In this document: positions 16,732-58,611 of the stretch, piece by piece | Numbering within the stretch: the stretch's first letter is position 1 | Layout of the letters: every line of letters starts with the position of its first letter | Source of the DNA: Minisyncoccota bacterium | GTDB taxonomy: Bacteria; Patescibacteriota; Microgenomatia; UBA1400; PJMF01 | NCBI GenBank assembly: GCA_012515515.1 | Contig: JAAYYE010000013.1 | Coordinates: 2,293 to 66,292, forward strand | Direction: 5' to 3' | Length of the DNA stretch: 64,000 nucleotides | Notes under the pieces: generated by a model | Told to the model about the DNA's origin: nothing | The model's input: only the letters and a program-made list of their open reading frames with translations | The model's database searches: none | Position numbers and translations under genes: made by a program

Positions 16732-16803
16732 TGCCTCCACCAAGAGTCGAACTTGGATTTAAGGTTTAGGAAACCTTCGTTCTATCCGTTGAACTATAGA
16801 GGC
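16732..16803 (-). tRNA. tRNA-Arg (anticodon CCT)
   Basis: Reverse complement GCCTCTATAGTTCAACGGATAGAACGAAGGTTTCCTAAACCTTAAATCCAAGTTCGACTCTTGGTGGAGGCA folds as a cloverleaf. Anticodon loop TTCCTAA. No encoded CCA. Confidence 0.8.
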
Positions 16804-16813
16804 TATATTTTTG

Positions 16814-16887
16814 TCGGAGATGGCGGACTCGAACCGCCGACCTCGGCGTCCCGAACGCCGCACTCTAGCCATCTGAGCTAATCTCCG
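16814..16887 (-). tRNA. tRNA-Pro (anticodon CGG)
   Basis: Reverse complement CGGAGATTAGCTCAGATGGCTAGAGTGCGGCGTTCGGGACGCCGAGGTCGGCGGTTCGAGTCCGCCATCTCCGA. Anticodon loop TTCGGGA with G37. No encoded CCA. Confidence 0.8.
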
Positions 16888-25273: not shown

Positions 25274-25299
25274 AGATCCTTTATTTAAATGTTTTTTAA

Positions 25300-25520
25300 A
25301 AAATATAAAAATATTGACTAAGTACAAAAATTAACTTTACTACTTGTTAGCCAAAAACTAGAGAAAGGGGAAACGCTTTGTTTACTTCCTCGGTGTGATG
25401 ATTAAGCTTTGCAGCCCACACTGTCTTTGGACAACAGCAGAATTATAGCAGACAACAGTCGACTGACAAGGCGCAAAAAAGACCAAGGCCTACATTTACA
25501 AGCAGGACTTAATAAGCCAT
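25300..25520 (-). promoter_or_regulatory. Putative rplJ (L10) leader / promoter region
   Basis: GC-richer segment upstream of rplJ with potential stems (e.g. GGGGAAACGCTTTGTTTACTTCCTC...). The position corresponds to the L10(L12)4 autoregulatory leader of other bacteria. Not verified structurally. Confidence 0.3.
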
Positions 25521-36464: not shown

Positions 36465-36540
36465 GCCTTTGTAGCTCAGTCGGTAGAGCGCAGTCTTGGT
36501 AAGACTGAGGTCTCGGGTTCGATCCCCGACAAAGGCTCCA
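36465..36540 (+). tRNA. tRNA-Thr (anticodon GGT), CCA encoded
   Basis: GCCTTTGTAGCTCAGTCGGTAGAGCGCAGTCTTGGTAAGACTGAGGTCTCGGGTTCGATCCCCGACAAAGGCTCCA. Anticodon loop TTGGTAA. Confidence 0.85.
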
Positions 36541-36610
36541 AACTACAGGCCACTAAATTATTAAAAGAATAATTTAAATAACAATTTAACAAGAGAACTT
36601 AATAAAACGC

Positions 36611-36692
36611 GCCAGGATACTCAAGCGGTCAACGAGGGCAGTCTGTAAAACTGCTGGCTTAGCCTACGTAGGTTCGAGTCCTACTCCTGGCA
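36611..36692 (+). tRNA. tRNA-Tyr (anticodon GTA), long variable arm
   Basis: GCCAGGATACTCAAGCGGTCAACGAGGGCAGTCTGTAAAACTGCTGGCTTAGCCTACGTAGGTTCGAGTCCTACTCCTGGCA. Anticodon loop CTGTAAA. Followed by CCG, not CCA. Confidence 0.8.
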
Positions 36693-36696
36693 CCGC

Positions 36697-36770
36697 GCCC
36701 CCCTAGCTCAACTGGTTAGAGCACCTGTTTTGTAAACAGGAGGTTCAGGGTTCGAGTCCCTGGGGTGGCT
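36697..36770 (+). tRNA. tRNA-Thr (anticodon TGT)
   Basis: GCCCCCCTAGCTCAACTGGTTAGAGCACCTGTTTTGTAAACAGGAGGTTCAGGGTTCGAGTCCCTGGGGTGGCT. Anticodon loop TTTGTAA. One C-U mismatch at pair 4-69 of the acceptor stem. No CCA. Confidence 0.7.
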
Positions 36771-41217: not shown

Positions 41218-41288
41218 GGGGCGGTAGTTCAATGGTAGAATCAAGGTCTCCAAAACCTTTGATGAGGGTTCGATTCCTTCCCGCCCTG
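41218..41288 (+). tRNA. tRNA-Trp (anticodon CCA)
   Basis: GGGGCGGTAGTTCAATGGTAGAATCAAGGTCTCCAAAACCTTTGATGAGGGTTCGATTCCTTCCCGCCCTG. Anticodon loop CTCCAAA. G1-U72 wobble. Followed by CA. Confidence 0.8.
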
Positions 41289-42014: not shown

Positions 42015-44012
42015 TTAATCGCCAGGATGATATCCTGGCTCAATGTTTTGTTGGGCAGTTTCGGCTCTCAAATTTTGACCAAATTTTGTTGTTGCGGGTT
42101 TTAAATCAATTAAGCCCACCAGTTCGTGAGTAAGATTGCCTGACCACAAAGCTCCTAGATCTGTTCGACCCTTTTTTTTGTACAAAGCAGCTAAAGCTTT
42201 AATGTTTTCTAAAATGCGTCGGCCAATTAGCTTGTAAGCTTCAAGTGGGCTGTTGGCACTTATCAATGATTGAATATAATTTTGAAACTCCTGTTCATTG
42301 TATTGTGGCGAGCCAATTAGTTCGTGAAATTTTAATAAGGAAATAAACCAATCTTGTTTATATGCTCCCCACTGGTCTTCAAAACTTATGTTTCGTAACA
42401 GCTCGGTGGCTTGTCTTTCCAGCCACGAGATGGCCATGATGTGATTTGGCTCAATGCCGATCACTTTTTCCTCCATCATTGTGCTTAATTCTTGGTTTAG
42501 ATAGTTGATTGCGTTTGCCAAGACCTCTTTATTGCTCAAAACTCCATTTATTTTAGCTTGTTCTAGTGTTTGCAATTGTTGGTTTAATTCTTTGTCAGAG
42601 GTTGTGGGTGGGAAGTCTGATACCGGTTTGGTGTTTTCTGCCAATCTTCTCAGGACATCAATAGGTTTTACTTTTTTTCTACTTGCGTTTCTTTCTTCAA
42701 TTTCCATTTCATATTTTTCTTTGTTAAACAACAGCTGGATTCGTTCTGCTGAATTAAAATAATCAGCTTTGGGAATTACTTGTTCTAATTGAGATTTATC
42801 ATTAGTATCGTAATAATGAAGCATTGAGGTAATCAGCTCATTCACGTAAGGGCGTTGGTCGTGGATGCAGTCTCGTAAGATACCAAATGGTTTTGCCATT
42901 ATTAGGCCGTCTAATCGATTTTGCTCCAATTTAGCCAAACTTGTGGCTGGGACCTCCCTAGCTGCAAGTAATAATTCATTGAGATTTTCAGAAGATACTT
43001 GACTGGCATAAGCGTGACAAAGATAATCGCCAACCCCAAAATCTCCACGCCTCATTCCCCAAATATTGCCACTTTTTAAAAGAATTTCGACCTGAGGATC
43101 ATTATTTTGCATTGCGGGAAGCAAGCGATCTATTAATCCTCGTAATTTTTCTGCCGTTAAATCATGATTTCTGGTATAACTTGATATTGCCTCAGCAAAC
43201 TTTGCTCCAATATCTCTATCAAAATAATTAGCAACTTCTTTGTAAATCTGTAGCATTAATTTGATTTGATCTGGATTATTAGAGTATAGACCGGATTGAG
43301 TGGCGCCACTCATAAAATTTTTGTCCAACTCATCTTTTGGTCGTTGAGCTGTAACTAGATAATGATGTTCATAAAGCTCAGAAAAGGCATTAAAAAAATT
43401 GATAAATTCTTCAGGTTTTTTTGCAGTTGGGCGTGAGTATCTATTAGACCCAGATATTTCAATTAAAACTTTTTGAAAATCTTGCACCCTTTCTTGAGCC
43501 GTTGGCTCATCTATTTCGCTCATAAATTTTGATTTCCATTGGCTCGCTAAGGATTGGTTAAATTTTGCTTGATCTGCAGTAGCACAAACCCCCGTCCACT
43601 GCCTCATGTTTGCAGGGGTTAATTCGCTTTGAGAAGGAAGAATGCTGATGCTTAAGTCGCGAAGCGCTGTAATATATTCAGCAAAATCTTGATCAGAAAT
43701 TTCTTTTTGAGTAATGTTGAAAATTAAATTTTGTTTATCACGTTTAGTTTTAGACAGCCTTAAACTTGCTTCTTCTTTTTCTTTTTCATCAAGTTGATCG
43801 ACTGGCTTTTGCTGATTGTGTGCAATTTCTTCGTATTGTTGCTCTAAAGTTTTGTCAGGAAAAATAGCATCCACCTGTGGTTGAACGATTGCTGTCCGCA
43901 ATTGAGTCTCTTCTAGAATTTTAAGATCTTCAGCGGTCCATTGAAATAATGTTTCTTTATCGTTATTATTATTAGTTGGTTGGGGTTTAGCTGTTTCTGC
44001 TGGTTGTTGCAT
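42015..44012 (-). CDS. Hypothetical large protein (665 aa)
   Basis: Long ORF 20 nt upstream of the 41329..41994 ORF, in the same orientation. No motif recognised. Confidence 0.45.
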   Translation of the reverse strand: MQQPAETAKPQPTNNNNDKETLFQWTAEDLKILEETQLRTAIVQPQVDAIFPDKTLEQQYEEIAHNQQKPVDQLDEKEKEEASLRLSKTKRDKQNLIFNITQKEISDQDFAEYITALRDLSISILPSQSELTPANMRQWTGVCATADQAKFNQSLASQWKSKFMSEIDEPTAQERVQDFQKVLIEISGSNRYSRPTAKKPEEFINFFNAFSELYEHHYLVTAQRPKDELDKNFMSGATQSGLYSNNPDQIKLMLQIYKEVANYFDRDIGAKFAEAISSYTRNHDLTAEKLRGLIDRLLPAMQNNDPQVEILLKSGNIWGMRRGDFGVGDYLCHAYASQVSSENLNELLLAAREVPATSLAKLEQNRLDGLIMAKPFGILRDCIHDQRPYVNELITSMLHYYDTNDKSQLEQVIPKADYFNSAERIQLLFNKEKYEMEIEERNASRKKVKPIDVLRRLAENTKPVSDFPPTTSDKELNQQLQTLEQAKINGVLSNKEVLANAINYLNQELSTMMEEKVIGIEPNHIMAISWLERQATELLRNISFEDQWGAYKQDWFISLLKFHELIGSPQYNEQEFQNYIQSLISANSPLEAYKLIGRRILENIKALAALYKKKGRTDLGALWSGNLTHELVGLIDLKPATTKFGQNLRAETAQQNIEPGYHPGD

Positions 44013-46073: not shown

Positions 46074-46343
46074 ATGAAAATTGAGACAGCTAAAAACATT
46101 TTAACTAAGTACGGTTGCCAAGTTCCCAAGGATTGCCAAGAAGCTAAAGCAATTTTGGATAAATATAGCAATGGAGAAATTGATTTTTGTGGCGATGGAA
46201 TTAACCAGCAAGCTGTTAGAGAAATTTATAATGCACTTAGCATAATTTTATGTTCTGAAATGGGTAAAGAAAATCGACCCGATCCAAAGCGAAAGGATCG
46301 CAAGGCTGCTGAGGAAAGAAAAAAACGCTTAAATATTCGCTAA
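46074..46343 (+). CDS. Hypothetical small protein with basic C-terminal tail
   Basis: 89-aa ORF. C-terminal RPDPKRKDRKAAEERKKRLNIR. Convergent with the giant gene. Confidence 0.3.
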   Translation: MKIETAKNILTKYGCQVPKDCQEAKAILDKYSNGEIDFCGDGINQQAVREIYNALSIILCSEMGKENRPDPKRKDRKAAEERKKRLNIR

Positions 46344-46357
46344 GTAAATTATTCTAA

Positions 46358-46407
46358 TGGTTTTATTGTTTCTCCCAAACAATTGGTTTTATTGTTGTTC
46401 CCAAACA
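46358..46407. repeat. Tandem pair of 25-nt hairpin-forming repeats between convergent genes (probable bidirectional terminator). Second copy overlaps the giant gene stop.
   Basis: GGTTTTATTGTTTCTCCCAAACAAT and GGTTTTATTGTTGTTCCCAAACAAT. Each contains ATTGTTT...AAACAAT inverted arms. Confidence 0.45.
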
Positions 46408-49400
46408 ATATTCATATCTTTGAGTTTGTAATTGGGACTATAAGAAAATATTTTTTCTTCTTCAAAACTAAAGGCTTTATTTATTTGCCGTACCCTTTCG
46501 TCCATAGCTTTTTCAAATTTTCCTCCGGTACGATTGGTTCTAATTGCTCCATTTTTTGATAATAAAATTTTATTAAAACCATTGTTTTTAGCAAAAGTTT
46601 CCAAAACTTTCATCAAGCCATTAAACATCGATGCTTCATCTGTAGAGTAGAGGAAAGTGCTAGAAGGATTTAGGGAAGCGCTGAGCACTTTTTCTCCTTT
46701 TTCCTCAAAATGATGTAGCAATACTAATCCAAGACAGCGATTAGTATCGGGATCTTGTAAAACGAGCTGAAAATAGTTCTCACTATCCCACATGTTTGGT
46801 TTTTGTTGTTCTGGACTTTGATTGGCAAGGGGGTTGTCTTGGCTTACACAAACTCCGCCCACCATTCTGGCATTAGCACTTTCCTTAGTTTTGGAAAAGA
46901 AGCCATTGATTACTTGTCTTTGTTTACCAGATTCGCTTTCAAATTTTGCCAACTCAGTTTCTAGCAGATTTTGTTCATCGGCAAATAAATTGACAAATCT
47001 TAAAGCAGTCAGGGCTTGAAATTGTTCTTCGTCATATTCGCCAGTATCGATTTTGGCTAAAGAAAGGGCTAAATCTTCCAAACTAGTATCGCCTAAACGA
47101 AATTCTTGCAAATTTAGGGAGTTTCCAGTTAGAGTTTCAACGGCCTCCATAGTTTTAGTTCTTTGAGCTTTGACCTGCCCATAAAATGCCCTAGTGCTGC
47201 TTTTTTCTGAAGTGCTATCAACACTTAAACCTTGAGTTAAATTTTCATAATAAAGAATTAATTTTTTGATAGTTTCCGGTGGATATTTTTTACCCATTCT
47301 TTTTTCGATAGTGCGACTGATTTGTGCAATAAAGCTGTCACTCATTCCCAAACGGTCAAGTCTAAACCTATTACTTTGATCACTCAGTTTTGCTTGAGCC
47401 TGTTCTTGAACAATTTTTGCAAAATATTCTTGCATTCTCTCTTTTAGCACTTGGTTTTCCCATCCAGCTTTGACTAAACGCCGATTGACCTCCTTAATCC
47501 GATCAGTAAAAAAACTGTGTAATTCACACATTAGGGCATATTCTTGATTGGAAGCTTGACTAACTCGATCAGTAGTGCCTTGGATGTAATCTCTAACATC
47601 TTCAAACAAAGCAAATTCATAACGCAAAATTAAGTCTTTTAACTCCTGATGGGGGACGGTTTTATCGGTATAAACAGAATCAGCTAAAAGAATAAACATT
47701 TTTTCGTCTAAAGTGTTTAATTGTTTAAGATCAAGATTTTTTAAACCACCCGCAGCCAATTTGTTTTCTAACAATGCATCAACTTTTTCTTCCAACTCTG
47801 TTTGAATTTTTTCTAAATCAAAGCTACTGGCTTTCATTTCCTCTGCCAAAGTTAAAATAGGTTTTTTCAGAGACTCAATAGCTGGCTCATTGATTACTTC
47901 ACCTTCTTTGACTTTAATTTTTGCCGCTGCCAACAAATCAATTTCATATTTTTGATCATAAGTAAACTGAGTTAAATCGGCAGTTCTGTCAACACAAGCT
48001 TTAGTTTTTGCCAAACCTCCCCAGTTTCCAGCATTATTAGGATAAACCGCTTTGAGCAGGTCATTGTAAAAGAGTTTTTGTCTATCTTGTTCAGGAATCG
48101 GTTCCGAGCTGATCATTTGGCTGCCTAGTTGTTGTAATTCTGCAACATAAGCCTCTTCTAAATTTCTCGCTTCAGCTTTTAAATAACCTTCAGCAATTGT
48201 TGGACTTAAAACTCTAAATTTTTGTGTAAAATTTAAAATTTTATTTCTATTTTCACTAGTAATGATACCTGCTTTTATACAAATCACATATTCGTCCAGA
48301 ATAGTTAAAGTTTTTTTACCATGAATCCCAATAAACCTGCTTAAAAATTTTAAATCTTCAGCATTGTTGGCAATATCTTTACCGTGATTAAAGATAAATA
48401 GTCTGAGACTTGCTTGGTCTTTATTAAAAAGATGGGGTAGAATTTTTATATAATCATAAGAAAGTTCGGGTTGAATTTGTCCTTGGCCAACTGCTTGTAA
48501 AACTTCCATGGAAATTTCCTGATCAGAATTGTTTTCAAGACATGTCTGATAAAATTTTGTTAAAAATTGTAGGCCCTCGTCGCTGACAAAATCAAATTTT
48601 GGACTACTTATGAGTATCAAGTGATCTTTATTTAGTAATTTAGGAGCATGTTCATAAAAATTTAAGGCGTTATTTTTAGAAAGTTTGCCATCCACCACAC
48701 TAGATAAAATTTTAACTAATGCTTCAGCATTGCTTGCTTGTGTACTGTCGCCATACTTGTCATCAAACTTTTGATAAAAATCCATACCTGATTTATTAAA
48801 AAAATATGGCAGTTTGTGTTGGAAAAATTGAAACTTCCGCCAATTCTTATTATTATTTAAACAAGGATATGAGTCATAAGCGTCAGCAAGAAAGTTTAAG
48901 TCTTCGATAGAGACCGAGTGCTTTCCACCACAGCTACCCACAATACCTATGAAGTCATAAGAAGTTAAAAACGAGAGTTTTTTTGGATTATCCTGATTTT
49001 TTTCCCACAACTCTGTTAAATATAGGAAAGTTCTAAGATTAGTTAATAAATCTAAATATTTATCACTTTGAGGATCGGCATTATTCAAGTTCTTTAAAAT
49101 ATTTCTAAATATATCTTCCCAATTTAGTAAATTCATTCTAATCTCATGGGCTTCTATTATTGATTCTAGATTGTCGTCATCAACTTGACTAAGTGTCAAC
49201 ACAAGATTGGATGCTCGTTGATAAGCCAAAACATCTTCTTGGCTAAGAATACCCTTAGTAAACGTTTCAGCAACTAGCGTATCATTGGTTAAAGAGTTTC
49301 GAGCCATTGTTCTTAAGCGATCGTCCTCAGATTTATCATCATAAATTCGTTTAGCTAATTGCGAGCTTGTTTCTTTAATATTTGGGTAGTTTTCGTATTC

Positions 49401-50927
49401 AGCAAAATCCCAATTAAGTAATAATTCTCGAATCTGACTTAATTCAGGATAGCTTTGGACTGCTTGCTCTAATAGTTCTGGCCAATCTGTTCTTTGAGCC
49501 AGTCGCTTGAGAGCAGCGTTGGCATGAATAAGTCGGTATCCCACCTGATCATTATCAGTAGCAGCGATGATAACTAAATTTTTAATAGTATTGGGAGTTG
49601 GATAATGAACCAACTTATCAATATAACCACCTTCAGTATCGCTTAATGATTGATCCATTAAAATTGTATAGATTTGATCATCAAAACTTTTAATTAAAGA
49701 AGCATATGTTGCCTGTGCTGTCTTTGATTTCTTAACAGCATTAAAATAACCCAAGTCCACTTGGTCTATAAACTCATCTACTTGCCAATTACCGTACCTG
49801 TTATAACCAGGTTGTAAATGTTTGCTTAAGTAGGGGATAAGCTTGTTTCTAATTTGATCGGGTAAATTTTCTAAGAAAGCTTGCTGAACTTCGCCTTCTT
49901 GGTCGTAAGCTAAGTCCATGAGTAAAGCCTGAATTATTTTTAGGTCTTCTTTTTGATATATGGATTGCAGCTGAGAGTCTACTGCATAAAAAGCAGAAGT
50001 GTTTTTTTCCATTTCCGCTCGCGCTTCTTGCTGTTTATCATCATTGCCGGCATTTCTAGCATCAATATATTTAGTCAAATTTTTCATGAACTTATCCACA
50101 TCTTGTTTGCTAAAATTTTCTCCCACCTGTGCTTCTAATTTAGTCAGGATTTCTGTATCAATGTATTCTTGAGTGATTTCTTGTCTAATCCAAGCTGAAT
50201 TTTCCACATTTTGTATAGGTTTTCTCCAGGCTTCCACCACTTGTTGAATATCTTCCTCTAAATAAAATGTGGCTTGAGTGGCTGAATATTGATCAAGCTT
50301 TATATTTGCATCTTCAATCGACTCGAGTTGTGATTCAAGCTTCTGCAATTCTTCGTTTAATTGTTCTTTCTCTGTTTGATAATTTTTTTCAACCAATTGT
50401 TGGCTAGATTCTTGGCTAGTGCTGAATATGCTTCTAATTTGTTTGGCAATTTTTTTATACCAGCTTGCCGAAGACGACTCTTCACTATCTCTGATTAGTT
50501 CTTGCTCTTGCTGGCGCTTTAATTCTGCTAGTGCCAAATCAAGCTCTGAAACTTGTTTTTCAAGTTGCAAAATGCTTTCTTTCAGAGAATTTTCTTCAAT
50601 AGTTAGTCGAGATTGGGCCTGATTAAGCGCTGGCCAATCAAGGTTTTCTGCTTTGACATTCTGCTGGAGTTGTTCGTCTGTGGGCACAGCTGCCAGAGCT
50701 ACTTCTAGGGAAAGCTCGCTGTGATCTTGATCTAGCTTAGGAATTAAATTCTGTTTAAAAGCTTCTAACTTTTTTTTGATGTTGGCAGTAATTAATTGAG
50801 CTTGAACAACTTCAGGATCCATTTTGGCTTCAGCTGGTCGCTGAACTTCATCTGTTAAAGGATTATTAACATTGGCTTGCTGATTGGCATTATTAAGTGA
50901 ATCCTTCATTAAGTTTAATCCTATCAA
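46389..50927 (-). CDS. Giant (1512 aa) cytoplasmic coiled-coil-rich protein with a distinct C-terminal globular Cys/His-containing domain
   Basis: No signal peptide or TM. N-terminal 350 aa heptad-like (LQLEKQVSELDLALAELKRQQEQE...). C-terminal about 170 aa ...MVGGVCVSQDNP...NRCLGLVLLHHFEEKGEK...IRTNRTGGKFEKAM... Asn/Lys-rich composition. Confidence 0.55.
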   Translation of the reverse strand: MIGLNLMKDSLNNANQQANVNNPLTDEVQRPAEAKMDPEVVQAQLITANIKKKLEAFKQNLIPKLDQDHSELSLEVALAAVPTDEQLQQNVKAENLDWPALNQAQSRLTIEENSLKESILQLEKQVSELDLALAELKRQQEQELIRDSEESSSASWYKKIAKQIRSIFSTSQESSQQLVEKNYQTEKEQLNEELQKLESQLESIEDANIKLDQYSATQATFYLEEDIQQVVEAWRKPIQNVENSAWIRQEITQEYIDTEILTKLEAQVGENFSKQDVDKFMKNLTKYIDARNAGNDDKQQEARAEMEKNTSAFYAVDSQLQSIYQKEDLKIIQALLMDLAYDQEGEVQQAFLENLPDQIRNKLIPYLSKHLQPGYNRYGNWQVDEFIDQVDLGYFNAVKKSKTAQATYASLIKSFDDQIYTILMDQSLSDTEGGYIDKLVHYPTPNTIKNLVIIAATDNDQVGYRLIHANAALKRLAQRTDWPELLEQAVQSYPELSQIRELLLNWDFAEYENYPNIKETSSQLAKRIYDDKSEDDRLRTMARNSLTNDTLVAETFTKGILSQEDVLAYQRASNLVLTLSQVDDDNLESIIEAHEIRMNLLNWEDIFRNILKNLNNADPQSDKYLDLLTNLRTFLYLTELWEKNQDNPKKLSFLTSYDFIGIVGSCGGKHSVSIEDLNFLADAYDSYPCLNNNKNWRKFQFFQHKLPYFFNKSGMDFYQKFDDKYGDSTQASNAEALVKILSSVVDGKLSKNNALNFYEHAPKLLNKDHLILISSPKFDFVSDEGLQFLTKFYQTCLENNSDQEISMEVLQAVGQGQIQPELSYDYIKILPHLFNKDQASLRLFIFNHGKDIANNAEDLKFLSRFIGIHGKKTLTILDEYVICIKAGIITSENRNKILNFTQKFRVLSPTIAEGYLKAEARNLEEAYVAELQQLGSQMISSEPIPEQDRQKLFYNDLLKAVYPNNAGNWGGLAKTKACVDRTADLTQFTYDQKYEIDLLAAAKIKVKEGEVINEPAIESLKKPILTLAEEMKASSFDLEKIQTELEEKVDALLENKLAAGGLKNLDLKQLNTLDEKMFILLADSVYTDKTVPHQELKDLILRYEFALFEDVRDYIQGTTDRVSQASNQEYALMCELHSFFTDRIKEVNRRLVKAGWENQVLKERMQEYFAKIVQEQAQAKLSDQSNRFRLDRLGMSDSFIAQISRTIEKRMGKKYPPETIKKLILYYENLTQGLSVDSTSEKSSTRAFYGQVKAQRTKTMEAVETLTGNSLNLQEFRLGDTSLEDLALSLAKIDTGEYDEEQFQALTALRFVNLFADEQNLLETELAKFESESGKQRQVINGFFSKTKESANARMVGGVCVSQDNPLANQSPEQQKPNMWDSENYFQLVLQDPDTNRCLGLVLLHHFEEKGEKVLSASLNPSSTFLYSTDEASMFNGLMKVLETFAKNNGFNKILLSKNGAIRTNRTGGKFEKAMDERVRQINKAFSFEEEKIFSYSPNYKLKDMNIVWEQQ

Positions 50928-51085: not shown

Positions 51086-51433
51086 ATGTCGAAAATTAAA
51101 GAACTTACTCAAAGATTAATTGATTTTCGTGAAGTTCGCAATTGGAAACAATTCCATAGCCCAAAGAATTTAGCAGAATCAATTTCTATAGAAGCAAATG
51201 AGCTGCTAGAACACTTTCAGTGGTTGGATTTAGAAGAAAGTAAAAGATATAGTGTGGAACACAAGCAAGAACTAGCAGAAGAAATTGCTGATGTTCTGAA
51301 TTATCTAGTTTTATTAGCTCATGACCTAGACATTGATTTGATTGAAGCTGCAATTAAAAAAATAGAGATAAATAATAAGAAATATCCAATAAAAAAGTCA
51401 AAAGGTATAAGCACAAAATATAATAGATTATAG
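51086..51433 (+). CDS. MazG-like / DCTPP1-like all-alpha NTP pyrophosphohydrolase
   Basis: FREVRNWKQFHSPKNLAESISIEANELLEHFQW ... EEIADVLNYLVLLAHDLDIDL ... NNKKYP aligns motif-by-motif with the DCTPP1/MazG-like family (RDWEQFHQPRNL...GELAELFQW...ELSDVLIYLV...RYP). Confidence 0.75.
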   Translation: MSKIKELTQRLIDFREVRNWKQFHSPKNLAESISIEANELLEHFQWLDLEESKRYSVEHKQELAEEIADVLNYLVLLAHDLDIDLIEAAIKKIEINNKKYPIKKSKGISTKYNRL

Positions 51434-51442
51434 AATTACAAA

Positions 51443-53305
51443 ATGGTTGTTTATAAAAATACAGCTACTGGATTTTGCTACGACGTTGAGACCAATAAGA
51501 TAGCTGACAGCATAGAATTAGCTTTCAAAAATAGTCTTGGTCGAAAAGTAAATCCCAGTGAAAAAAGTGCTTGGATAAACTCCATGTCATTTATGGAAAG
51601 AATAGTTCGTAATTCTGGAGTGGCTCAAGACTGTGGGGTTTTAATAGAATATAATATTCCAGCTACTTCTAAAAGAATAGATTTCATAATTGCTGGTTGC
51701 GACAGTGAAAACAAAAAAAAATTTGTTATTGTTGAACTTAAACAATGGCAGCTAGCGCATAACACTTTTAAAGATGGGCTTGTAACTAGTTTTTTTAGAG
51801 GTGGCGAAAGAGAAACTCCACATCCGTCTTATCAAGCATACTCTTACAAAAGTTTCTTAAAAGACTATAACGAGAATATTTATAACGGTAAAATTAATCC
51901 CTATTCATGTGCATATTTACACAATTATAAGGAAAAACACCCAGAGCCTCTAAAAGCTGATATATATAAAGAATATGTAGCTGATTCTCCAATTTACTTT
52001 CAAGATGACTTTGAAAAGTTAGCAAATTTTATAAAAATGCATGTTGGTAATGGCGGTGGGGAAGAAATTCTTTATGACATAGAGTCGGGGAGAATCAGGC
52101 CTAGTAAAAGATTAATTGACTGCGTAAACGCAATGTTTAAAGGCAATCAAGAATTTATTCTGTTGGACGAACAAAAGGTTGCCTATGAAACAGCTCTTCA
52201 TAATGCTATCAATAGTAAAGAAAAAACTGTGATTATTGTTAAAGGTGGCCCCGGCACTGGCAAATCAGTTGTTTCAATGAATTTATTTGGAGGATTACTC
52301 ACTAAACAGTTAAATACAGTTTTTGTAGCACCCAATGCCGCTTTTAGAAGTGTAATGAAACATAAATTAGCTGGAGAGGAAAGGAGAGAGAGATTAAATC
52401 ATTTGTTTAAAGGTTCGGCAGCTTTCTACGGATTACAAGATAACGTTTATGACGCAATTGTTGTTGATGAAGCGCATCGTTTAAAAAATTATAAAGCTTA
52501 CCAATATTTTGGACAAAATCAAATTGAAGATATTGTGAAGGCTGGTAAAACTAGTATTTTTTTTGTTGACGAAAATCAAATTATTCGTCCAGAAGACATA
52601 GGTTCGATTGAAGAAATTAAAAAAATAGCCAATCAACAACATGCAACAATTAATGAAATAGAACTACAGGCTCAATTTAGATGTTCTGGTTCAGACGGAT
52701 ATATAAATTGGTTAGATAATACTTTAAGAATCAAAGAAACAGCAAATTTTGATGGCTGGGAAGACAAAAACTTTGAATTTATTATTTTTGATGATCCGAA
52801 TGATTTAAGGCAAGCTATTAAGAATAAACAAAATCAGGGGTTTGATGCTCAATTGTTAGCAGGATACGCTTGGAAATGGACGAGTGCAAAAGAAGGCAAC
52901 TCTAATTCTCAGAGTGAAGATGTCCAGATACCAGAATACAACTTTAGTATGCCTTGGAATTCACGAAAAGCTGGGTCAAATTGGGCAATTGATGAAAGTA
53001 GCCATGAACAAATTGGTTGTGTGCATACAAGTCAAGGTTTAGAATTTGATTATGTGGGTGTAATCGTTGGCAATGATCTGCGCTTTGATAAAGAAAAATT
53101 TGAGTATTTTGTTCCCTGGAACTCTTATAAAGATATGGCTGGAAAAAAGGGTTTAAAAAATGAACCTGAAAAGCTATGCTTATTGGTAAAAAATATTTAT
53201 AAAATTTTAATGACCAGAGGTATTTATGGTTGCTATGTTTTTTTTCAAGACAAAAATTTGAAAGAGTTTATTGAAAGTAGATTGAAAAACGATTCATACA
53301 AGTAA
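51443..53305 (+). CDS. DUF2075-type protein: N-terminal PD-(D/E)xK nuclease-like domain fused to a Schlafen-like/SF1-like P-loop ATPase
   Basis: Putative nuclease core KRIDFIIAG...FVIVELKQW (D...ExK). Walker A VKGGPGTGKSVV. Walker B DAIVVDEAHRL. C-terminal CVHTSQGLEFDYVGVIVG typical of the DUF2075 / UvrD-like C-terminal region. 9 nt downstream of the MazG-like gene. Confidence 0.7.
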   Translation: MVVYKNTATGFCYDVETNKIADSIELAFKNSLGRKVNPSEKSAWINSMSFMERIVRNSGVAQDCGVLIEYNIPATSKRIDFIIAGCDSENKKKFVIVELKQWQLAHNTFKDGLVTSFFRGGERETPHPSYQAYSYKSFLKDYNENIYNGKINPYSCAYLHNYKEKHPEPLKADIYKEYVADSPIYFQDDFEKLANFIKMHVGNGGGEEILYDIESGRIRPSKRLIDCVNAMFKGNQEFILLDEQKVAYETALHNAINSKEKTVIIVKGGPGTGKSVVSMNLFGGLLTKQLNTVFVAPNAAFRSVMKHKLAGEERRERLNHLFKGSAAFYGLQDNVYDAIVVDEAHRLKNYKAYQYFGQNQIEDIVKAGKTSIFFVDENQIIRPEDIGSIEEIKKIANQQHATINEIELQAQFRCSGSDGYINWLDNTLRIKETANFDGWEDKNFEFIIFDDPNDLRQAIKNKQNQGFDAQLLAGYAWKWTSAKEGNSNSQSEDVQIPEYNFSMPWNSRKAGSNWAIDESSHEQIGCVHTSQGLEFDYVGVIVGNDLRFDKEKFEYFVPWNSYKDMAGKKGLKNEPEKLCLLVKNIYKILMTRGIYGCYVFFQDKNLKEFIESRLKNDSYK

Positions 53306-53309
53306 TTTC

Positions 53310-53495
53310 TTATTCTTTTAGTAATTTAGATTCATTGGTGAATCTGTTAATTGATATTTTTTTGAGAATTTTTTTACCCCGCTTGGTGTCAAAATGAATG
53401 ATTTTTAATTTTTGTTTTTTATTAATAAAGCGAAATTGACGTAATTTTAAATCTACAGTATATTTTTCAAAAGTTGGAAGCTTTGTTATTGCCAT
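53310..53495 (-). CDS. Hypothetical small basic (Lys-rich) protein
   Basis: 61-aa ORF MAITKLPTFEKYTVDLKLRQFRFINKKQKLKIIHFDTKRGKK... Start codon abuts a perfect palindrome. Confidence 0.3.
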   Translation of the reverse strand: MAITKLPTFEKYTVDLKLRQFRFINKKQKLKIIHFDTKRGKKILKKISINRFTNESKLLKE

Positions 53496-53525
53496 TGTAA
53501 CTATTTTTTAAAAAAATAGTTACAA
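53495..53525. promoter_or_regulatory. Perfect 31-bp palindrome (15-nt arms), putative operator
   Basis: TTGTAACTATTTTTT-A-AAAAAATAGTTACAA, followed by an extra GTTACAA half-site copy at about 53530-53536. Confidence 0.4.
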
Positions 53526-53588
53526 TTGTTGTTACAAATTAAAAAAATCACTTGCTGCATTTAATGTAAACTTATTCTAATTAATTTC

Positions 53589-53747
53589 TCACCCTCTCTC
53601 CCAATCCAATTCATCAATTAAGCCCTCGGCATTGTCTAGGTCACCTAGGTCAATTAATTCCTCGATTTCAGCACTTTCGTCATCTGTTAGCAGCTCTTCT
53701 ATATCCCCAAGCCTTGATGTCAGCTCATCTTGTCTTTCTACATCCAT
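53589..53747 (-). CDS. Possible small highly acidic protein (52 aa), not in the ORF track
   Basis: Hand translation gives MDVERQDELTSRLGDIEELLTDDESAEIEELIDLGDLDNAEGLIDELDWERG*. Divergent from the DUF2779 gene. Could be non-coding. Confidence 0.25.
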   Translation of the reverse strand: MDVERQDELTSRLGDIEELLTDDESAEIEELIDLGDLDNAEGLIDELDWERG

Positions 53748-53769
53748 TCTTTAATTATATAATCAAGTT

Positions 53770-55341
53770 ATGACCATTTCCAAATCCGATTACATGCTTT
53801 TTCTTCGCCATCCGGCTTGGTTGTGGCTTAAAAAACACCAGCCCCAGCGTTTGCCCGAAGCCGATGCCAATCTCCAGGATATTTTTGCCAGTGGCCATCA
53901 ATTTGAGGCTTATGCGGAACAGCTTTTTCTTGGTGCCGTTAAATTGGGCTTTGCTGGCTATGATCAATATTTGAGCCTGCCAGAGAAAACTCAAGCCTTA
54001 ATTGACCAGCACACTCCCTGTATTTTGCAGGGGAGGCTAGAAGTTGATGGTCTGACTTGTATTTTTGATGTGTTGGAGCGGGTGGATGAGCAGACTTTTA
54101 ATTTAATTGAAATCAAATCTAGTACTAAGGCAAAAAACGTTCATCTTTACGATTTAGCTTTTCAAAGCTTGATTTTAGAGCGTTTGGGCTGGCAGGTGGG
54201 GGAGATTAGTGTGTTGCACGCTAATAAAGATTATCTGCGCCAAGGGGCAATTGATCCCGAGCAGTTGTGTAGTCGTAGTGAGGTCACTCAAGAGGTAAAA
54301 GCCCTTTTACCACAGACTAAAGACTTAGTTGAGCTAGCCAAAACTGTGCTCAAGCAGCCAGAGCCACCGTCTTTTTCACCCAGTTTAGTTAATATGGCTG
54401 GGGTAAAAGAGACCAACTGGCTCAAAGAGTGGTTGGCTATTTATTTACAAGAACTCCATCCAGATTTAAACAAATACAATATTTATCAGTTAGCTGGAGC
54501 AAAAGCCGAGCAATTGGGCAAACTCGAAAAGCAGGGCATTCAGCTCTTAGCCGATATTCCTGACGAATTAACCCTCGGCACTAAACAAAAGTTGCAAATC
54601 CAGACCACTCGGACTGCTCAGCCCTTGATTAATCAGTTGGCAGTTAAGGATTTTTTAGCCAGTTTGCACTATCCTTTATATTTTTTAGATTATGAAACGA
54701 TGACCTCAGTCATTCCTTTTTTTGACGGGATGAGGCCTTATCAGGATTATCCTTTTCAGTATTCGCTACATTTATTAAGGGAACCTGCTAGCAAATTAGA
54801 GCATTTTGCCTATTTGCATCAAGACAAGAGCAATCCTTTGCCAGGATTAATTGCTCAATTAAAGCAGGATTTGGCTGAGCAGGGTAGTATTCTGACCTGG
54901 AACATGAGCTATGAAAAGGGTTGTCACCAGCGCTTGGCCGATTTTTGTCCAGAGAAAGCGGAGTTTTTTGAGCAAGTTAATGAGCGCATTGTGGATTTGA
55001 TGACCGTCTTTAAAAACTTAGATTTTGTCGATCGAGATTTTATGGGCAGTGCTAGTTTGAAAAATGTTTTGCCCGTTTTAGTTCCCGAATTAAGTTACGC
55101 TGATTTAAATGTTAGCGATGGCATGTTCGCTAGACGGCTGTGGACAGACACTATTTTGCTAGGTAAAAATAAGCGGGAGAAAGAGGCAATTTTGCAAGAT
55201 TTGCTGGATTATTGTACTCTAGATACCTACGGCATGGTTCGGATTTTAGAGCTGTTGGAGAGGGTGGTGGAGGTGGAAAAGGCGGAGGGGGTGGAAAAGA
55301 TGAAAAAGGTGGAGAGCGCCACTCACACGCCCGACATGTGA
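53770..55341 (+). CDS. DUF2779-like protein: N-terminal RecB/Cas4-like PD-(D/E)xK nuclease plus C-terminal DnaQ-like (DEDD) 3'-5' exonuclease domain
   Basis: N-terminus MTISKSDYMLFL (DUF2779 ISKS signature). Nuclease motifs FDVLERVD...LIEIKSS and QSLILERLGW (QxxxY-like). C-terminal YFLDYETMT (Exo I DxE), WNMSYEKG (Exo II-like) and LLDYCTLDTYGMVRIL (Exo III Y...D). Confidence 0.6.
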   Translation: MTISKSDYMLFLRHPAWLWLKKHQPQRLPEADANLQDIFASGHQFEAYAEQLFLGAVKLGFAGYDQYLSLPEKTQALIDQHTPCILQGRLEVDGLTCIFDVLERVDEQTFNLIEIKSSTKAKNVHLYDLAFQSLILERLGWQVGEISVLHANKDYLRQGAIDPEQLCSRSEVTQEVKALLPQTKDLVELAKTVLKQPEPPSFSPSLVNMAGVKETNWLKEWLAIYLQELHPDLNKYNIYQLAGAKAEQLGKLEKQGIQLLADIPDELTLGTKQKLQIQTTRTAQPLINQLAVKDFLASLHYPLYFLDYETMTSVIPFFDGMRPYQDYPFQYSLHLLREPASKLEHFAYLHQDKSNPLPGLIAQLKQDLAEQGSILTWNMSYEKGCHQRLADFCPEKAEFFEQVNERIVDLMTVFKNLDFVDRDFMGSASLKNVLPVLVPELSYADLNVSDGMFARRLWTDTILLGKNKREKEAILQDLLDYCTLDTYGMVRILELLERVVEVEKAEGVEKMKKVESATHTPDM

Positions 55342-55505
55342 CTATGAGCGCAGTAAAAGAGTTTTTGCCAATCTAAGCGAGCTAGCGAATAGCAGCCAAA
55401 GATAAAATTATCTTAGATATAAAGAATGATTATTTTAGCTTATTACAGTATAAAATATAGTCATTATAGTATAAAATGTAGAGGCTATAAAAATAAAAGG
55501 ATTTT

Positions 55506-56723
55506 ATGGTCATTTCCAAAAAAACCAATTTTTTTATTTCCTTTGTTATTGTTTTTTCAGTATTATTGATTGGTTTTGGCTACAAATATAATGAGTGGTA
55601 TGTATTAAATTACTTAAATAATTTGCAAAGAGAGGCCGACCTTGCTGAATTGAAATTAATAGAAAAAAGCAACATACTAGCGCAGGACGATGAAGCGGTT
55701 AATGTTTTTATCGATTCTTTAACAGAAGAGCCTGATGTTATTGAAAGTAATTACAAAAAATTTAATTCTTATTTTTATTTAAACAAAATTACACATGAAG
55801 AGTACTATAAGCTTTTGCTTGATAACTATCATAAATATCAAAAAATAAATAAAAGAGCCACATTCTTACTTGGTTCAAAAAAAGAATTTGTCAATGAATT
55901 TCTTGATCTTACGAGCAATTATTATGAAAATGAGATAGAAAATAATGAAAATATAACAATATCGATAGCTTTTACGGAGAATCTTTATAAATTGTTAAAG
56001 GATCGATTAATTATTGAATATTATTTTTCTATATCTGATGATTTAGACGATCTAGCTAGCAACTTTGGACAAATTTCTAGTGCAGAAAAATACACGCATA
56101 CTGATTTTAAATTTGATCAAGAAGATGCAATTAGTTCTTATTATACTTCTGGATCAGAGTTACTAGACATTAATAAAAACTATATTTCTAGTTTATATTT
56201 GATTGCTAAAGACGTGGCAGCTGGTAATTATGAATCTGCAAGGTATAAACATGCTAGCCTGACGAATCAGGCAGCTGATTCTAACATTGATACTGACGAT
56301 GCATTTAGTGAAAACGAAGAGAGCAAAAGGAGATTGAGCCAAGAAATTGCGGCAATTAATATTAAAAAAATATTATTATTAGACGATTTGAATAAAAATC
56401 CCATTGATAATTATCCTTTTGTTGAATCATTAAAACCTTGGGAGGTTGATGCCCTTATTTGTAATTTATCTTGGTATAAAACCTCAATCTATGAAGATGT
56501 ATTTGATGAGATACCGATTGTTGATAATTTAGAAAACTTAATTGCTGAATTAAATAAAGTTCCACCAAGCACTGAACAACTAAGCGCAATTGTCAATTAT
56601 GAAACAAATAAAATTGAGTATGACACAGAAAATGGCAAATTAAGATTTATTTGTAAAGCAAATACCACAGGAGAAGAACTTGTTTTTATAACAGATTTAC
56701 CTCCTGCAGAAGAAAATGAGTAA
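55506..56723 (+). CDS. Hypothetical N-terminally anchored protein, very Asn/Lys/Ile/Tyr-rich
   Basis: 405-aa ORF. TM FFISFVIVFSVLLIGF. 8-nt overlap with the next ORF. Confidence 0.45.
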   Translation: MVISKKTNFFISFVIVFSVLLIGFGYKYNEWYVLNYLNNLQREADLAELKLIEKSNILAQDDEAVNVFIDSLTEEPDVIESNYKKFNSYFYLNKITHEEYYKLLLDNYHKYQKINKRATFLLGSKKEFVNEFLDLTSNYYENEIENNENITISIAFTENLYKLLKDRLIIEYYFSISDDLDDLASNFGQISSAEKYTHTDFKFDQEDAISSYYTSGSELLDINKNYISSLYLIAKDVAAGNYESARYKHASLTNQAADSNIDTDDAFSENEESKRRLSQEIAAINIKKILLLDDLNKNPIDNYPFVESLKPWEVDALICNLSWYKTSIYEDVFDEIPIVDNLENLIAELNKVPPSTEQLSAIVNYETNKIEYDTENGKLRFICKANTTGEELVFITDLPPAEENE

Positions 56724-58611
56724 ACTAGCTCACTTAGTTTTTAAAATTAAACCCTTTCTTTTAATTATTTTTATTTTATTGTTGTTGTTAATTTTGTCTT
56801 ATGTTTATAAAGATTTATTTTATGTTGTCTTAGCAGCTTTGATTATTATTTTTCTCCTTCTTAAAAAAGTTTTATCTCAGGCGAAATTTTTAAAATCAAA
56901 AAAAAAGATAAAAGAAAAAAAACCAAAGGCGAAATCTACAGACATCAATTTTGAGAAGACTTTTAAATTAAGTAAGCGATTAATTAAAAAACCAAAAAAA
57001 ATTGTATTTTTTTTGGTCGGCTTGTTGGTTTGTTTACTTGTTTATTTACTTATTTTTGTATTTAAAGTAGGCGATATAGGCGATTTTAGTTTTTTTTCAG
57101 ACACCCTTAACAATGTTATTTCAATTTTCCAAAACCTTTATCTCATTGCTTCTTTCGGTCTAATATTTTTAGTTTTTTTAATTTATTTTATTAAACAAAA
57201 ATCAAGTGTTATCAGCAAGTTTATTCATTTTATTATTTATTTATTTATTGCCGTCTTTATCGCTTTTTTCCTAGTTTTTACCCTAACATTCTTTTATAAA
57301 AATTATTTATTATGGAGAATGCCTTCTTCAAACTCGATCATAATTGATTCCGATTTGATTAATGAAGAACTACGAAAAATGGACAAACCACCCACAGTCT
57401 TAGTTTCTTTTGAGGATCTTGGTTCAGAAATTCATCATGCCTATTTAGCGAGTCAAGTTGCTTTTGGCAATAGTTATTTTAAAAATCTTGTGTCTATAAG
57501 TCCAACTTTCATCGAGACAGACACTACTTTTGCAGAAGCGAAAGCAGTTTTAATAGAAAATCAATTGATATTTCCAAAAATAGATAAAGACACAATTGAA
57601 AAACTAAGTCCTAATTTGGGGAAGCTTTATGTGCAATCTTATTTGGAAGATAAATATGTAAAAGAATTACCAACAGTTACTGTTCTAGGCAGACAAGATT
57701 ATCTTTCATATCGAGCAGACATGATAAATGACCAAGTTCTTGAGTTAGAAGAGATAAGCGCCAAACTACAATCAGAATTAAATGGTGTTTACGGAATGAT
57801 CAATGAAGCCGAGAGGGCAATTTCACAAAACGAATACTATATTCAAGAGGCTACTTTAAGAAGAACGAGCGATTACGATTATTGTATGACTGCTGGATAT
57901 TATTCATATTATTTGGAAGTTTTTTATCGAACATACAGCGACTCAACATGTGAAAGTGAATGGAATCAATGGTCGGCTATTATCCAAGAATATTATGATA
58001 ATATTGATAGCTTAAACCAAACAATAGCTTGGGCTAGACAAGAAGCAGCCTTTTACAAAGAAACTTTGCAAGAGTTCGATGCCTATATTTCATTAATAGA
58101 GTCCCAAAAAGAAGCAACAGTTTATGAATTAGGCCTATTTGAACCTGGTGAAAATATAAAAATCGCATTAGATAACACTGGCGCCAATTCTTTAGCTGAT
58201 TATTTATCGACTTTGGTGCACGAATATTTTCACTATACAAGCTATGTTTCAGATGAAAAAGTTTTGCCACTTTTTTTTGAGGAGGGCTTAACCGAATATT
58301 TTGCTAGAAAATCAATTGAACAAGAATTAAAAATTAGCACGGAGTTGGGCTATCCAGTAATAGTAACAATAATTAACAAAATGGTTGATGATATTGGCTT
58401 AGATAAGCTACAAAATATCTATTTAACTAAGAGTAAAGATGTGCTTATTGCAGAACTCAATCAGGCTTATGGAGATACTTTTTATGAAGATACTGAGTAC
58501 TTTTTTATGCTAATGCTTTATTTGGGGATAGAAGATCAATTGGGAATAGCTAATAATATCCTTTTTAGAATTGGAGGGGACCAATTAAATCTAGAAGACT
58601 ATAAAATTTAA
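56716..58611 (+). CDS. Polytopic membrane protein with C-terminal gluzincin-like HExxH...E metallopeptidase motif
   Basis: At least five hydrophobic segments in the first 200 aa. LVHEYFHYTSYVSDEKVLPLFFEEGLTEYFA (HExxH + EG(L)TxYF, reminiscent of the M1-type (W/F)xxEGxAxY third-ligand motif). Confidence 0.5.
   Translation: MSKLAHLVFKIKPFLLIIFILLLLLILSYVYKDLFYVVLAALIIIFLLLKKVLSQAKFLKSKKKIKEKKPKAKSTDINFEKTFKLSKRLIKKPKKIVFFLVGLLVCLLVYLLIFVFKVGDIGDFSFFSDTLNNVISIFQNLYLIASFGLIFLVFLIYFIKQKSSVISKFIHFIIYLFIAVFIAFFLVFTLTFFYKNYLLWRMPSSNSIIIDSDLINEELRKMDKPPTVLVSFEDLGSEIHHAYLASQVAFGNSYFKNLVSISPTFIETDTTFAEAKAVLIENQLIFPKIDKDTIEKLSPNLGKLYVQSYLEDKYVKELPTVTVLGRQDYLSYRADMINDQVLELEEISAKLQSELNGVYGMINEAERAISQNEYYIQEATLRRTSDYDYCMTAGYYSYYLEVFYRTYSDSTCESEWNQWSAIIQEYYDNIDSLNQTIAWARQEAAFYKETLQEFDAYISLIESQKEATVYELGLFEPGENIKIALDNTGANSLADYLSTLVHEYFHYTSYVSDEKVLPLFFEEGLTEYFARKSIEQELKISTELGYPVIVTIINKMVDDIGLDKLQNIYLTKSKDVLIAELNQAYGDTFYEDTEYFFMLMLYLGIEDQLGIANNILFRIGGDQLNLEDYKI

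Follow-up and report, generated by a model that had tools for sequence, protein, structure and literature searches.

A stretch of 64,000 nucleotides from a Minisyncoccota bacterium (contig JAAYYE010000013.1, positions 2,293 to 66,292 of the forward strand; hereafter the window, which denotes the whole stretch) carries on its minus strand an open reading frame (ORF) of 1512 codons that adjoins a candidate defence-type island. This raises the question of what the encoded giant protein does and whether it belongs to that island. Patescibacteria account for a large part of bacterial diversity, and most families of proteins that are enriched in the lineage are unannotated (PMC6744442). The initial annotation, made from the sequence alone, saw in the giant an orphan coiled-coil protein with a C-terminal Cys/His domain and suggested an effector, a scaffold or an abortive-infection sensor. 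Our results show a conserved, stand-alone, cytoplasmic, acidic and modular protein, whose constrained unit is a novel helical domain joined to a GNAT-fold domain (GNAT, GCN5-related N-acetyltransferase). As to function, we give about an even chance to an active acyl-group transferase, most likely acyl-coenzyme A (acyl-CoA) dependent, with a re-invented phosphate site, possible Cys/His chemistry and a scaffold that would recruit a macromolecular, probably protein, substrate.

The gene and its start codon

46389..50927, minus strand: uninterrupted ORF of 1512 codons (mechanical ORF, opening at TTG 50927)
46389..50909, minus strand: the gene as most likely expressed, 1506 amino acids plus stop, from an ATG start (AGGA, NCBI model P0001, homolog P0002)

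The ORF was found where the initial annotation had placed it, but its start was corrected. An ATG at 50909 lies six codons inside the ORF and is preceded by AGGA at -13 to -10, and no Shine-Dalgarno sequence accompanies TTG 50927. Because this upstream AGGA, the NCBI gene model (P0001, GX559_03240, a ‘hypothetical protein’ of Candidatus Pacebacteria bacterium, with 1506 residues from the same ATG) and the matching start of the closest homolog, P0002, all agree, ATG 50909 is more likely than TTG 50927 to be the start, as judged from the sequence. Residue numbers follow the 1512-residue ORF unless P0001 numbering is stated, and the coordinates of all listed parts were confirmed by translation.

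A conserved C-terminal core with a GNAT-type fold

Scans of the giant against Pfam, NCBIfam, PADLOC and, by phmmer, the PDB returned no family match, and matches to YfiT (E=0.026) and PDCD5 (E=0.23) were rejected as noise. Pfam scans of 20 C-terminal fragments and of the five longest family members (1741-2140 residues) found zero domains. When 60 full-length members were aligned (P0001 numbering), it was found that residues 1-850 are gappy and poorly conserved, with a top-residue frequency of ~0.2 and a modest peak at residues 401-550, and that from ~850 to the end conservation jumps to 0.4-0.64 in gap-free alignment. Between P0002 and the giant, identity rises from 39% over the N-terminal half to 64% over the C-terminal half, and the motif stretches near the C-terminus are nearly identical; across the family, sequences are 28-71% identical overall.

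An AlphaFold2 (AF2) model of residues 840-1512 as one unit, built from a 68-sequence alignment, reached a predicted local distance difference test score (pLDDT) of 90.5 and a predicted template-modelling score (pTM) of 0.82, and comprises two domains that pack against each other.

46947..48410, minus strand: conserved all-helical domain, residues 840-1327 (~490 residues; invariant residues, pLDDT ~90)
46392..46946, minus strand: C-terminal GNAT-fold domain, residues 1328-1512 (~185 residues; two models, fold searches)

The C-terminal domain was modelled with the topology b1-a1-a2-b2-b3-b4-a3-b5-a4-b6-b7 (b, strand; a, helix) at pLDDT 80-98, and a separate, smaller AF2 model reproduced it. In three Foldseek searches (two of the PDB and one of BFVD), the matches with a probability of at least 0.9 were GNAT acetyltransferases only: NatD/Naa40, Naa50, HAT1, RimJ, Gcn5/PCAF, AAC(3), GNA1 and viral GNATs. 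The scores of these fold matches were modest (E ~3e-3, TM score against the target 0.4-0.63). At the sequence level, neither the giant nor any of 20 members matched a GNAT model of Pfam or NCBIfam at E<=1 (C-terminal fragments being used for Pfam), and profile searches against PDB sequences with two alignments (A1, and the GNAT-only A4) did not find a GNAT. The domain has the fold of the GNAT superfamily, and it lacks both motif A, described below, and a recognizable sequence profile. With regard to the possibility, raised in the initial annotation, that this domain is that of a well-known housekeeping enzyme, Foldseek did return the fold of a well-known superfamily, but no specific housekeeping enzyme.

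A 37-residue profile match to the WASP WH1/EVH1 hairpin was judged to be due to chance (whole-sequence E=0.014, domain E=0.07). It aligned GGVCVxGDNP...LWDxxNYFQLV (46830-46900, minus strand, residues ~1352-1390) with GAVCFVKDNP...LLWEQELYSQLVY.

Fold searches with the helical domain gave low-probability helical-bundle matches only. It contains a loop/beta insertion (nt 47940-48044), YPNNxGxW...CxDRxxDL...YEIDL, in which N, C, D, R, D and Y are invariant, and a second conserved segment (nt 47490-47594), YIxGTxDRVSxAxNxxYALxCE...DRIKE. A terpene-synthase-like reading, based on the spacing DRxxD ... NxxxxxxxE, was dropped: no such enzyme was among the fold matches, and it is a loop rather than a helix that holds the first motif. 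As modelled, this helical domain, to which the GNAT-fold domain is fused, has no known counterpart and constitutes a novel domain.

Invariant loops and the putative active site

Motif conservation was determined as column counts over the 68 sequences.

46830..46859, minus strand: GGVCVSQDNP, a1/a2-b2 loop, with invariant C1360
46701..46721, minus strand: LLHHFEE, strand b3, with H1405 in 67/68
46656..46670, minus strand: NPSST, centre of SxNPSSTYLYxVDE, b4-a3 loop (column counts, model)
46512..46544, minus strand: IRTNRTGGKFE, b5-a4 loop, the family signature (column counts)

The b4-a3 and b5-a4 loops occupy the two classical places of cofactor contact in GNATs, and the a1/a2-b2 loop lies on the substrate side. 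The consensus of the a1/a2-b2 loop is A-R-M-V-G-G-V-C-V-x-G-D-N-P, with G1358 invariant and C1360 present in 68/68 sequences. Strand b3 reads C-x-G-L-V-L-L-H, where C1398 at the start of the strand (65/68), G1400 (68/68) and H1405 (67/68) are conserved. The pyrophosphate-binding motif Q/R-x-x-G-x-G/A (motif A) is absent from the b4-a3 loop, which instead carries S-x-N-P-S-S-T-Y-L-Y-x-V-D-E with P1421 and T1424 invariant. In the b5-a4 loop, I-R-T-N-R-T-G-G-x-F-E, residues N1465, R1466 and F1471 are invariant, R1463 is found in 67/68 and the Gly-Gly pair is conserved. The conserved C-terminal Cys/His domain with a Gly-rich loop that the initial annotation had described was largely upheld, three of its motifs representing the top of the protein's conservation, but the second His of LLHHFEE is kept in just 35/68. 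The signature R[TS]NR[TS]GG was present in 124 of 168 retrieved proteins and, with a single exception, was situated 46-78 residues from the C-terminus, indicating that the domain is always terminal in the family.

The polar residues that are nearly invariant (C, H, N, R, T, S, D, E) cluster in the loops that contact cofactor or substrate in GNATs, which argues for a retained active site. In the mechanism that we propose, the NPSST and RTNRTGG loops would grip the acyl donor, most likely acyl-CoA; C1360 and/or H1405 might take part in catalysis, possibly through an acyl-Cys intermediate; the side of the active site that binds the acceptor would be provided by the conserved helical domain; and the acidic, variable scaffold would bring in or orient the substrate, a macromolecule and probably a protein. 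By analogy, such an arrangement might resemble that of eukaryotic N-terminal acetyltransferase complexes, in which helical auxiliary subunits position the GNAT subunit.

The same features could be read as those of a catalytically dead GNAT-like module in a purely structural or adaptor scaffold, given that the canonical cofactor motif is lost, that there is zero sequence similarity to active GNATs and that the bulk of the protein is a helical repeat or scaffold region. However, pseudoenzymes usually relax their active-site loops, whereas here the cofactor and substrate loops have the top conservation in 1500 residues, and C, N, R, T, P, G and W positions are invariant despite the 28-71% overall identity. 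We therefore consider a dead module unlikely.

A further reading retains an active GNAT-fold transferase with a donor other than acyl-CoA. GNAT-fold enzymes without motif A typically use aminoacyl-tRNA, as do FemX, MprF and L/F-transferase, or acyl-acyl carrier protein (acyl-ACP), as do LuxI, OlsB and HlyC-type enzymes. In the giant, motif A is gone with a different invariant loop in its place, and two invariant Arg residues in the b5-a4 loop could bind the phosphates of RNA or ACP. However, the top 50 fold matches of each PDB search include no Fem, L/F-transferase, ATE1, MprF, LuxI or HlyC-type protein, and all are classical acetyl-CoA enzymes. Aminoacyl-tRNA in particular would have to be bound by a protein that is acidic throughout, which is unfavourable for tRNA, and genes for aminoacyl-tRNA synthetases (aaRS) occur near the giant at chance frequency. 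A different donor thus seems doubtful, and acyl-CoA is preferred.

Architecture of the N-terminal scaffold

The maximum 19-residue Kyte-Doolittle hydropathy of the giant is 1.22 and its N-terminus is polar, in agreement with the earlier prediction of no transmembrane segment and no signal peptide. Upstream of and overlapping the conserved core, three further parts were delimited.

50277..50630, minus strand: main heptad-like (possible coiled-coil) stretch, residues ~100-217 (heptad score versus shuffles)
48465..49712, minus strand: shared helical scaffold, residues ~406-821 (phmmer to the sister family, local conservation peak)
48168..49007, minus strand: four weak tandem helical repeats of ~70 residues, residues ~641-920 (segment-wise test versus shuffles)

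A crude heptad score flagged residues 100-143, 184-217 and 1140-1168, that is, 107 of 1512 residues (~7%), compared with 15 +/- 22 in shuffled sequences, and the main stretch sits in a poorly conserved, gap-rich N-terminal region (residues 1-405). Of the coiled-coil giant in the initial annotation there remains one heptad-like stretch, but the fraction is small and the modelled helical part is a bundle domain. These results also bear on an SMC-like or cytoskeletal coiled-coil structural protein. The size and helical nature of the giant, its high content of Q, E, K and L and a heptad-like stretch of ~120 residues would suit such a protein; yet the giant has no Walker A motif, no SMC match in Pfam or NCBIfam and little heptad-like sequence, and conservation falls on a globular helical domain together with a GNAT fold. 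This identity is extremely improbable.

The scaffold contains a HEAT-like motif, YPTPNTIKNLVIIAATD...HANAALKRLA. Self-BLAST of the giant revealed no internal repeats, but the segment-wise test against shuffles did detect them (units 2 vs 3, z=8.2; 1 vs 3, z=4.2; 2 vs 4, z=4.0). P0002 has one further ~70-residue unit, as seen in an offset alignment, and the repeats lead into the conserved core. The three regions of the protein are all acidic (median pI 5.2, 5.35 and 6.0), a charge that suits the binding of proteins better than that of nucleic acids. Altogether, the architecture is modular, with a fast-evolving helical N-terminus, a helical-repeat scaffold and a strongly conserved 673-residue core.

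Family size and distribution

The giant is not an orphan. When residues 313-1512 were compared exhaustively, by HMMER, with 1.84 billion cluster representatives, the number of proteins retrieved was 326 at E<=1e-3, 268 at 1e-10 and 146 at 1e-30. The majority of members have 1300-1800 residues and align over at least the last ~700, within a family range of about 900-2200. A word-index search with the full-length query had given 2 matches, the giant itself and one homolog, its candidate list being swamped by coiled-coil words; with the C-terminal 213 residues alone it gave 19 unnamed relatives.

Many short matches represent giants that are cut off at the end of a contig or broken up by frameshifts. 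At least two same-strand ORFs take the place of the giant in L006 (6263-11003), L009 (6384-10987), L023 (6659-11008), L029 (8021-10945), L044 (7871-10869) and L004 (1338-5425, small same-strand ORFs over ~4.1 kb). These splits reflect either frameshifts due to errors in sequencing or assembly, or pseudogenes, and partly explain the short homologs.

Sources named in the homolog searches were all Patescibacteria lineages. In a pattern scan of one genome per GTDB species (185,579 species), 43 loci were found in 38 genomes; the two peptide patterns used were estimated from motif frequencies to catch ~80% of members. The carriers are labelled Gottesman-, Roizman-, Levy-, Uhr-, Nomura-, Taylor-, Komeili-, Kerfeld-, Berkel-, Dojka- and Saccharibacteria, Peribacteria and ‘Patescibacteria group’, and some genomes hold 2-4 paralogs. 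With 38 carriers at this recall, the family is phylogenetically broad but sparse, and centred on Patescibacteria. The initial annotation had considered that the protein might be an SMC or structural homologue conserved across the lineage; a broad but sparse family centred on the lineage is what was found, but not an SMC homologue.

Several loci (L005, L006, L010, L011, L013, L015, L017, L022-L025) come from bulk co-assembly metagenome-assembled genomes (MAGs) labelled ‘uncultured Gammaproteobacteria/Pseudomonadales’. Their GC content is 30-41%, a neighbour-joining tree of the core places them among Gottesman-, Pace- and other Patescibacteria, and one is the contig of P0002. We regard these labels as unreliable, because the MAGs are bulk deposits and because of the GC content, the presence of the P0002 contig and the tree nesting. 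Outside this group, two MAGs look genuinely different: one labelled ‘Bdellovibrionales HKST-UBA20’ holds four copies (L035 2342-5593, L036 3223-6798, L037 2239-5451, L039 1-687) and one labelled ‘Pseudomonadota 139588_S189’ holds one (L040 7736-10600). The members from these two MAGs have 954-1191 residues and ~46-50% GC and form the deepest branches of the same tree, and their neighbours are unlike those of the Candidate Phyla Radiation (CPR): homocitrate/isopropylmalate synthase, CopA multicopper oxidase, a cytochrome-c-like protein and a Na+/H+ antiporter. In view of this deep branching, the family may be older than Patescibacteria or reach beyond them. No member was found in 2.9 million viral contigs, 50,697 phage records or 72,556 plasmids.

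One retrieved protein, P0131 (390 residues, from a Logan contig of 4210 nt), joins a TRAM/RumA-like N-terminus to the GNAT-like domain, a fusion that, if real, would hint at an RNA-related substrate. Its N-terminal ~197 residues correspond to a RumA-type TRAM plus Fe-S methyltransferase, the break falls inside a conserved RumA motif and the GNAT-like domain follows directly. It was set aside as a probable assembly chimera.

A sister family on the same scaffold

A sister group of proteins (P0147, P0154-P0156, P0160, P0161 and P0166; 1464-1715 residues) has the scaffold in common with the giant (phmmer E 1e-25 to 1e-45). In these proteins the conserved core is missing, and its place at the C-terminus is taken by another region of ~700 residues that they conserve among themselves (tail ...VNVxESAxxDHYxEFGG...), for which no Pfam or PDB match was found. 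The shared scaffold and the different tails indicate, at the sequence level, that one scaffold bears alternative C-terminal modules. Elsewhere in the window, no paralog of either the giant or the sister family was found.

These observations suggest another hypothesis, in which the protein is an exported or injected effector or toxin of epibiotic or predatory cells and a common scaffold delivers alternative C-terminal ‘warheads’. GNAT-fold effectors and toxins exist in other bacteria. Such a role would suit the patchy, sparse distribution across deep lineages, the 2-4 paralogs in single MAGs, one of them labelled Bdellovibrionales, the fast-evolving N-terminus and the sister family with a different module on the same scaffold. 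However, the giant has neither a signal peptide nor a transmembrane segment, and no secretion-system, immunity or other conserved neighbour; its C-terminal module is under strong purifying conservation and not diversified; the family is absent from the phages, plasmids and viral contigs searched; and the Bdellovibrionales label is unconfirmed. We hold it improbable that the giant is such an effector or toxin. The fuller version, in which host-directed effectors lacking a classical signal peptide bear alternative modules on the scaffold and the GNAT fold without its cofactor motif works, together with the new 490-residue helical domain, by acyl-enzyme chemistry at the invariant Cys, appears somewhat less probable still. 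An intracellular acyltransferase remains our preferred reading.

Genomic context and the neighbouring island

The giant is divergent from a MazG-like gene (PF12643, 51086-51433), which is followed by a DUF2075/Schlafen-group-3 helicase and then by a DUF2779 protein. The candidate island beside the giant spans 51086-58611 on the plus strand, and GC falls to 0.29 at 56-58 kb; it also includes an unannotated 405-residue ORF and a 631-residue ORF with a weak LmuB match (E 8e-4). In PADLOC, the models PDC-S41, AbiO and Nhi match the helicase (E 7.5e-22 to 1e-14) and the DUF2779 protein weakly resembles Cas4, which makes a defence-type island adjoining the giant plausible from the sequence.

This position, and the initial annotation, led us to consider whether the giant acts with the MazG-like, DUF2075 and DUF2779 genes, as a sensor or as an effector, in an island for anti-phage defence or abortive infection. 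In favour of this, a ~115-residue MazG-superfamily gene lies upstream of the giant in two close relatives, the contig of P0002 and its relative (L001 7632-7982 and L006 2646-2996; PF03819, weak). However, this gene was rejected as the equivalent of the MazG-like gene in the window, being of another Pfam family and not alignable with it (BLASTP E=6.5), and MazG-superfamily genes upstream in three genomes represent either coincidence or non-orthologous replacement. Furthermore, none of 15 window neighbours, including the MazG-like, DUF2075 and DUF2779 genes, was found within 10 kb of the giant in 47 related loci (thresholds, BLASTP 1e-5 and phmmer 0.01), so the suggested co-occurrence was tested and is absent. 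The giant has no match in PADLOC-DB v2. Among the 144 nearest neighbours at 35 loci, 160 Pfam families were represented, each in at most three proteins; PADLOC matches were sporadic and generic, and most neighbours were housekeeping or metabolic (aaRS, SmpB, iPGM, CTP synthase, DnaB, PurA, MacB/FtsX). A defence function with these genes is accordingly very improbable. The giant borders the island by its position in the window, but the association does not recur elsewhere, and the giant is not part of the island. Regarding the roles first suggested for it, the scaffold role is plausible and an effector role is conceivable though improbable, but the defence context did not hold.

Clustering of flanking ORFs identified no conserved operon partner. 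The best candidate, a class I aaRS, was present at 6/44 loci, which is consistent with chance in ~1-Mb genomes. The single nearby small ORF (46074-46343) is convergent with the giant and has no homolog near other family members. On the same strand as the giant, beyond an intervening PMT_2 gene, a 665-residue protein (42015-44012, minus strand) lacks any match in Pfam, NCBIfam or PADLOC, any homolog in the 47 related loci and any resemblance to the giant. The window also contains a ribosomal protein L10 leader and six tRNA genes (25297-25448, minus; 16732-16887, minus; 36465-36770, plus; 41218-41288, plus), as would be expected of an ordinary stretch of chromosome in a small Patescibacteria genome.

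Significance and relation to known systems

A description of the family was not found in literature searches. Méheust et al. (2019) reported 106 CPR-enriched families, mostly unannotated, and the family of the giant is not described in the text (PMC6744442). The family is undescribed and is not covered by Pfam 2025, NCBIfam 2026, PADLOC and the PDB. Our results turn a giant hypothetical protein into a defined family with domain boundaries, a high-confidence model of the 673-residue core, a probable enzymatic class and residues to mutate, and remove a false lead by placing the giant outside the neighbouring defence-like island. A new helical domain would be added to fold space and, should the enzyme be active, the GNAT superfamily would gain a lineage that lost the hallmark CoA motif. 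We regard this as an experimentally tractable ‘dark-matter’ family and not as a change of paradigm.

The classical GNATs (best fold matches: NatD/Naa40, 7kd7, 4u9v and 4ua3; Naa50, AAC(3)-Ia, RimJ, Gcn5/PCAF, HAT1 and GNA1) have the same fold with the same order of secondary structure. In contrast to them, the giant has no sequence similarity and no Q/R-x-x-G-x-G/A, its IRTNRTGGxFE loop and invariant Cys and His are specific to the family, and its domain makes up the last eighth of 1500 residues, whereas theirs are stand-alone proteins of ~150-200. FemX/FemAB, L/F-transferase, the MprF C-domain, LuxI and HlyC/TAAT are similar in combining a GNAT-type fold with a non-canonical donor site, but none was among the fold matches, and the giant lacks the duplicated GNAT lobes that Fem-type proteins have.

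The GNAT toxins TacT, AtaT and GmvT gave a weak fold match only (GmvT, 9ils, rank 34-36). They have ~170 residues and are encoded beside an antitoxin, whereas the giant, at 1506 residues, is stand-alone with no conserved small neighbour. Polymorphic toxins show the reverse of the pattern seen here, where the C-terminus is conserved and the N-terminus variable, and the giant has no conserved downstream gene; given the sister family, a modular exchange of the C-terminus is nevertheless possible.

A closer likeness in layout is to PatZ/Pka/YfiQ and the mycobacterial Pat regulated by cyclic nucleotide monophosphates (cNMP), which are large cytoplasmic bacterial proteins with a C-terminal GNAT and a big N-terminal regulatory or recruiting region. 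Their N-termini are acyl-CoA synthetase-like (nucleoside diphosphate-forming) or cNMP-binding, and their GNAT domains have motif A and Pfam matches. The N-terminus of the giant, in contrast, has no recognizable domain, and its GNAT-like domain has no Pfam match and no motif A.

Finally, the eukaryotic and archaeal NatA, NatB and NatC consist of a helical-repeat auxiliary subunit and a GNAT catalytic subunit. The giant differs from them in being fused in one polypeptide and in that its helical domain has no structural match to the tetratricopeptide repeat-type Naa15/Naa25. In pairing a large helical scaffold with a small GNAT unit, however, these complexes may by analogy provide a working model for how the giant positions its substrate.

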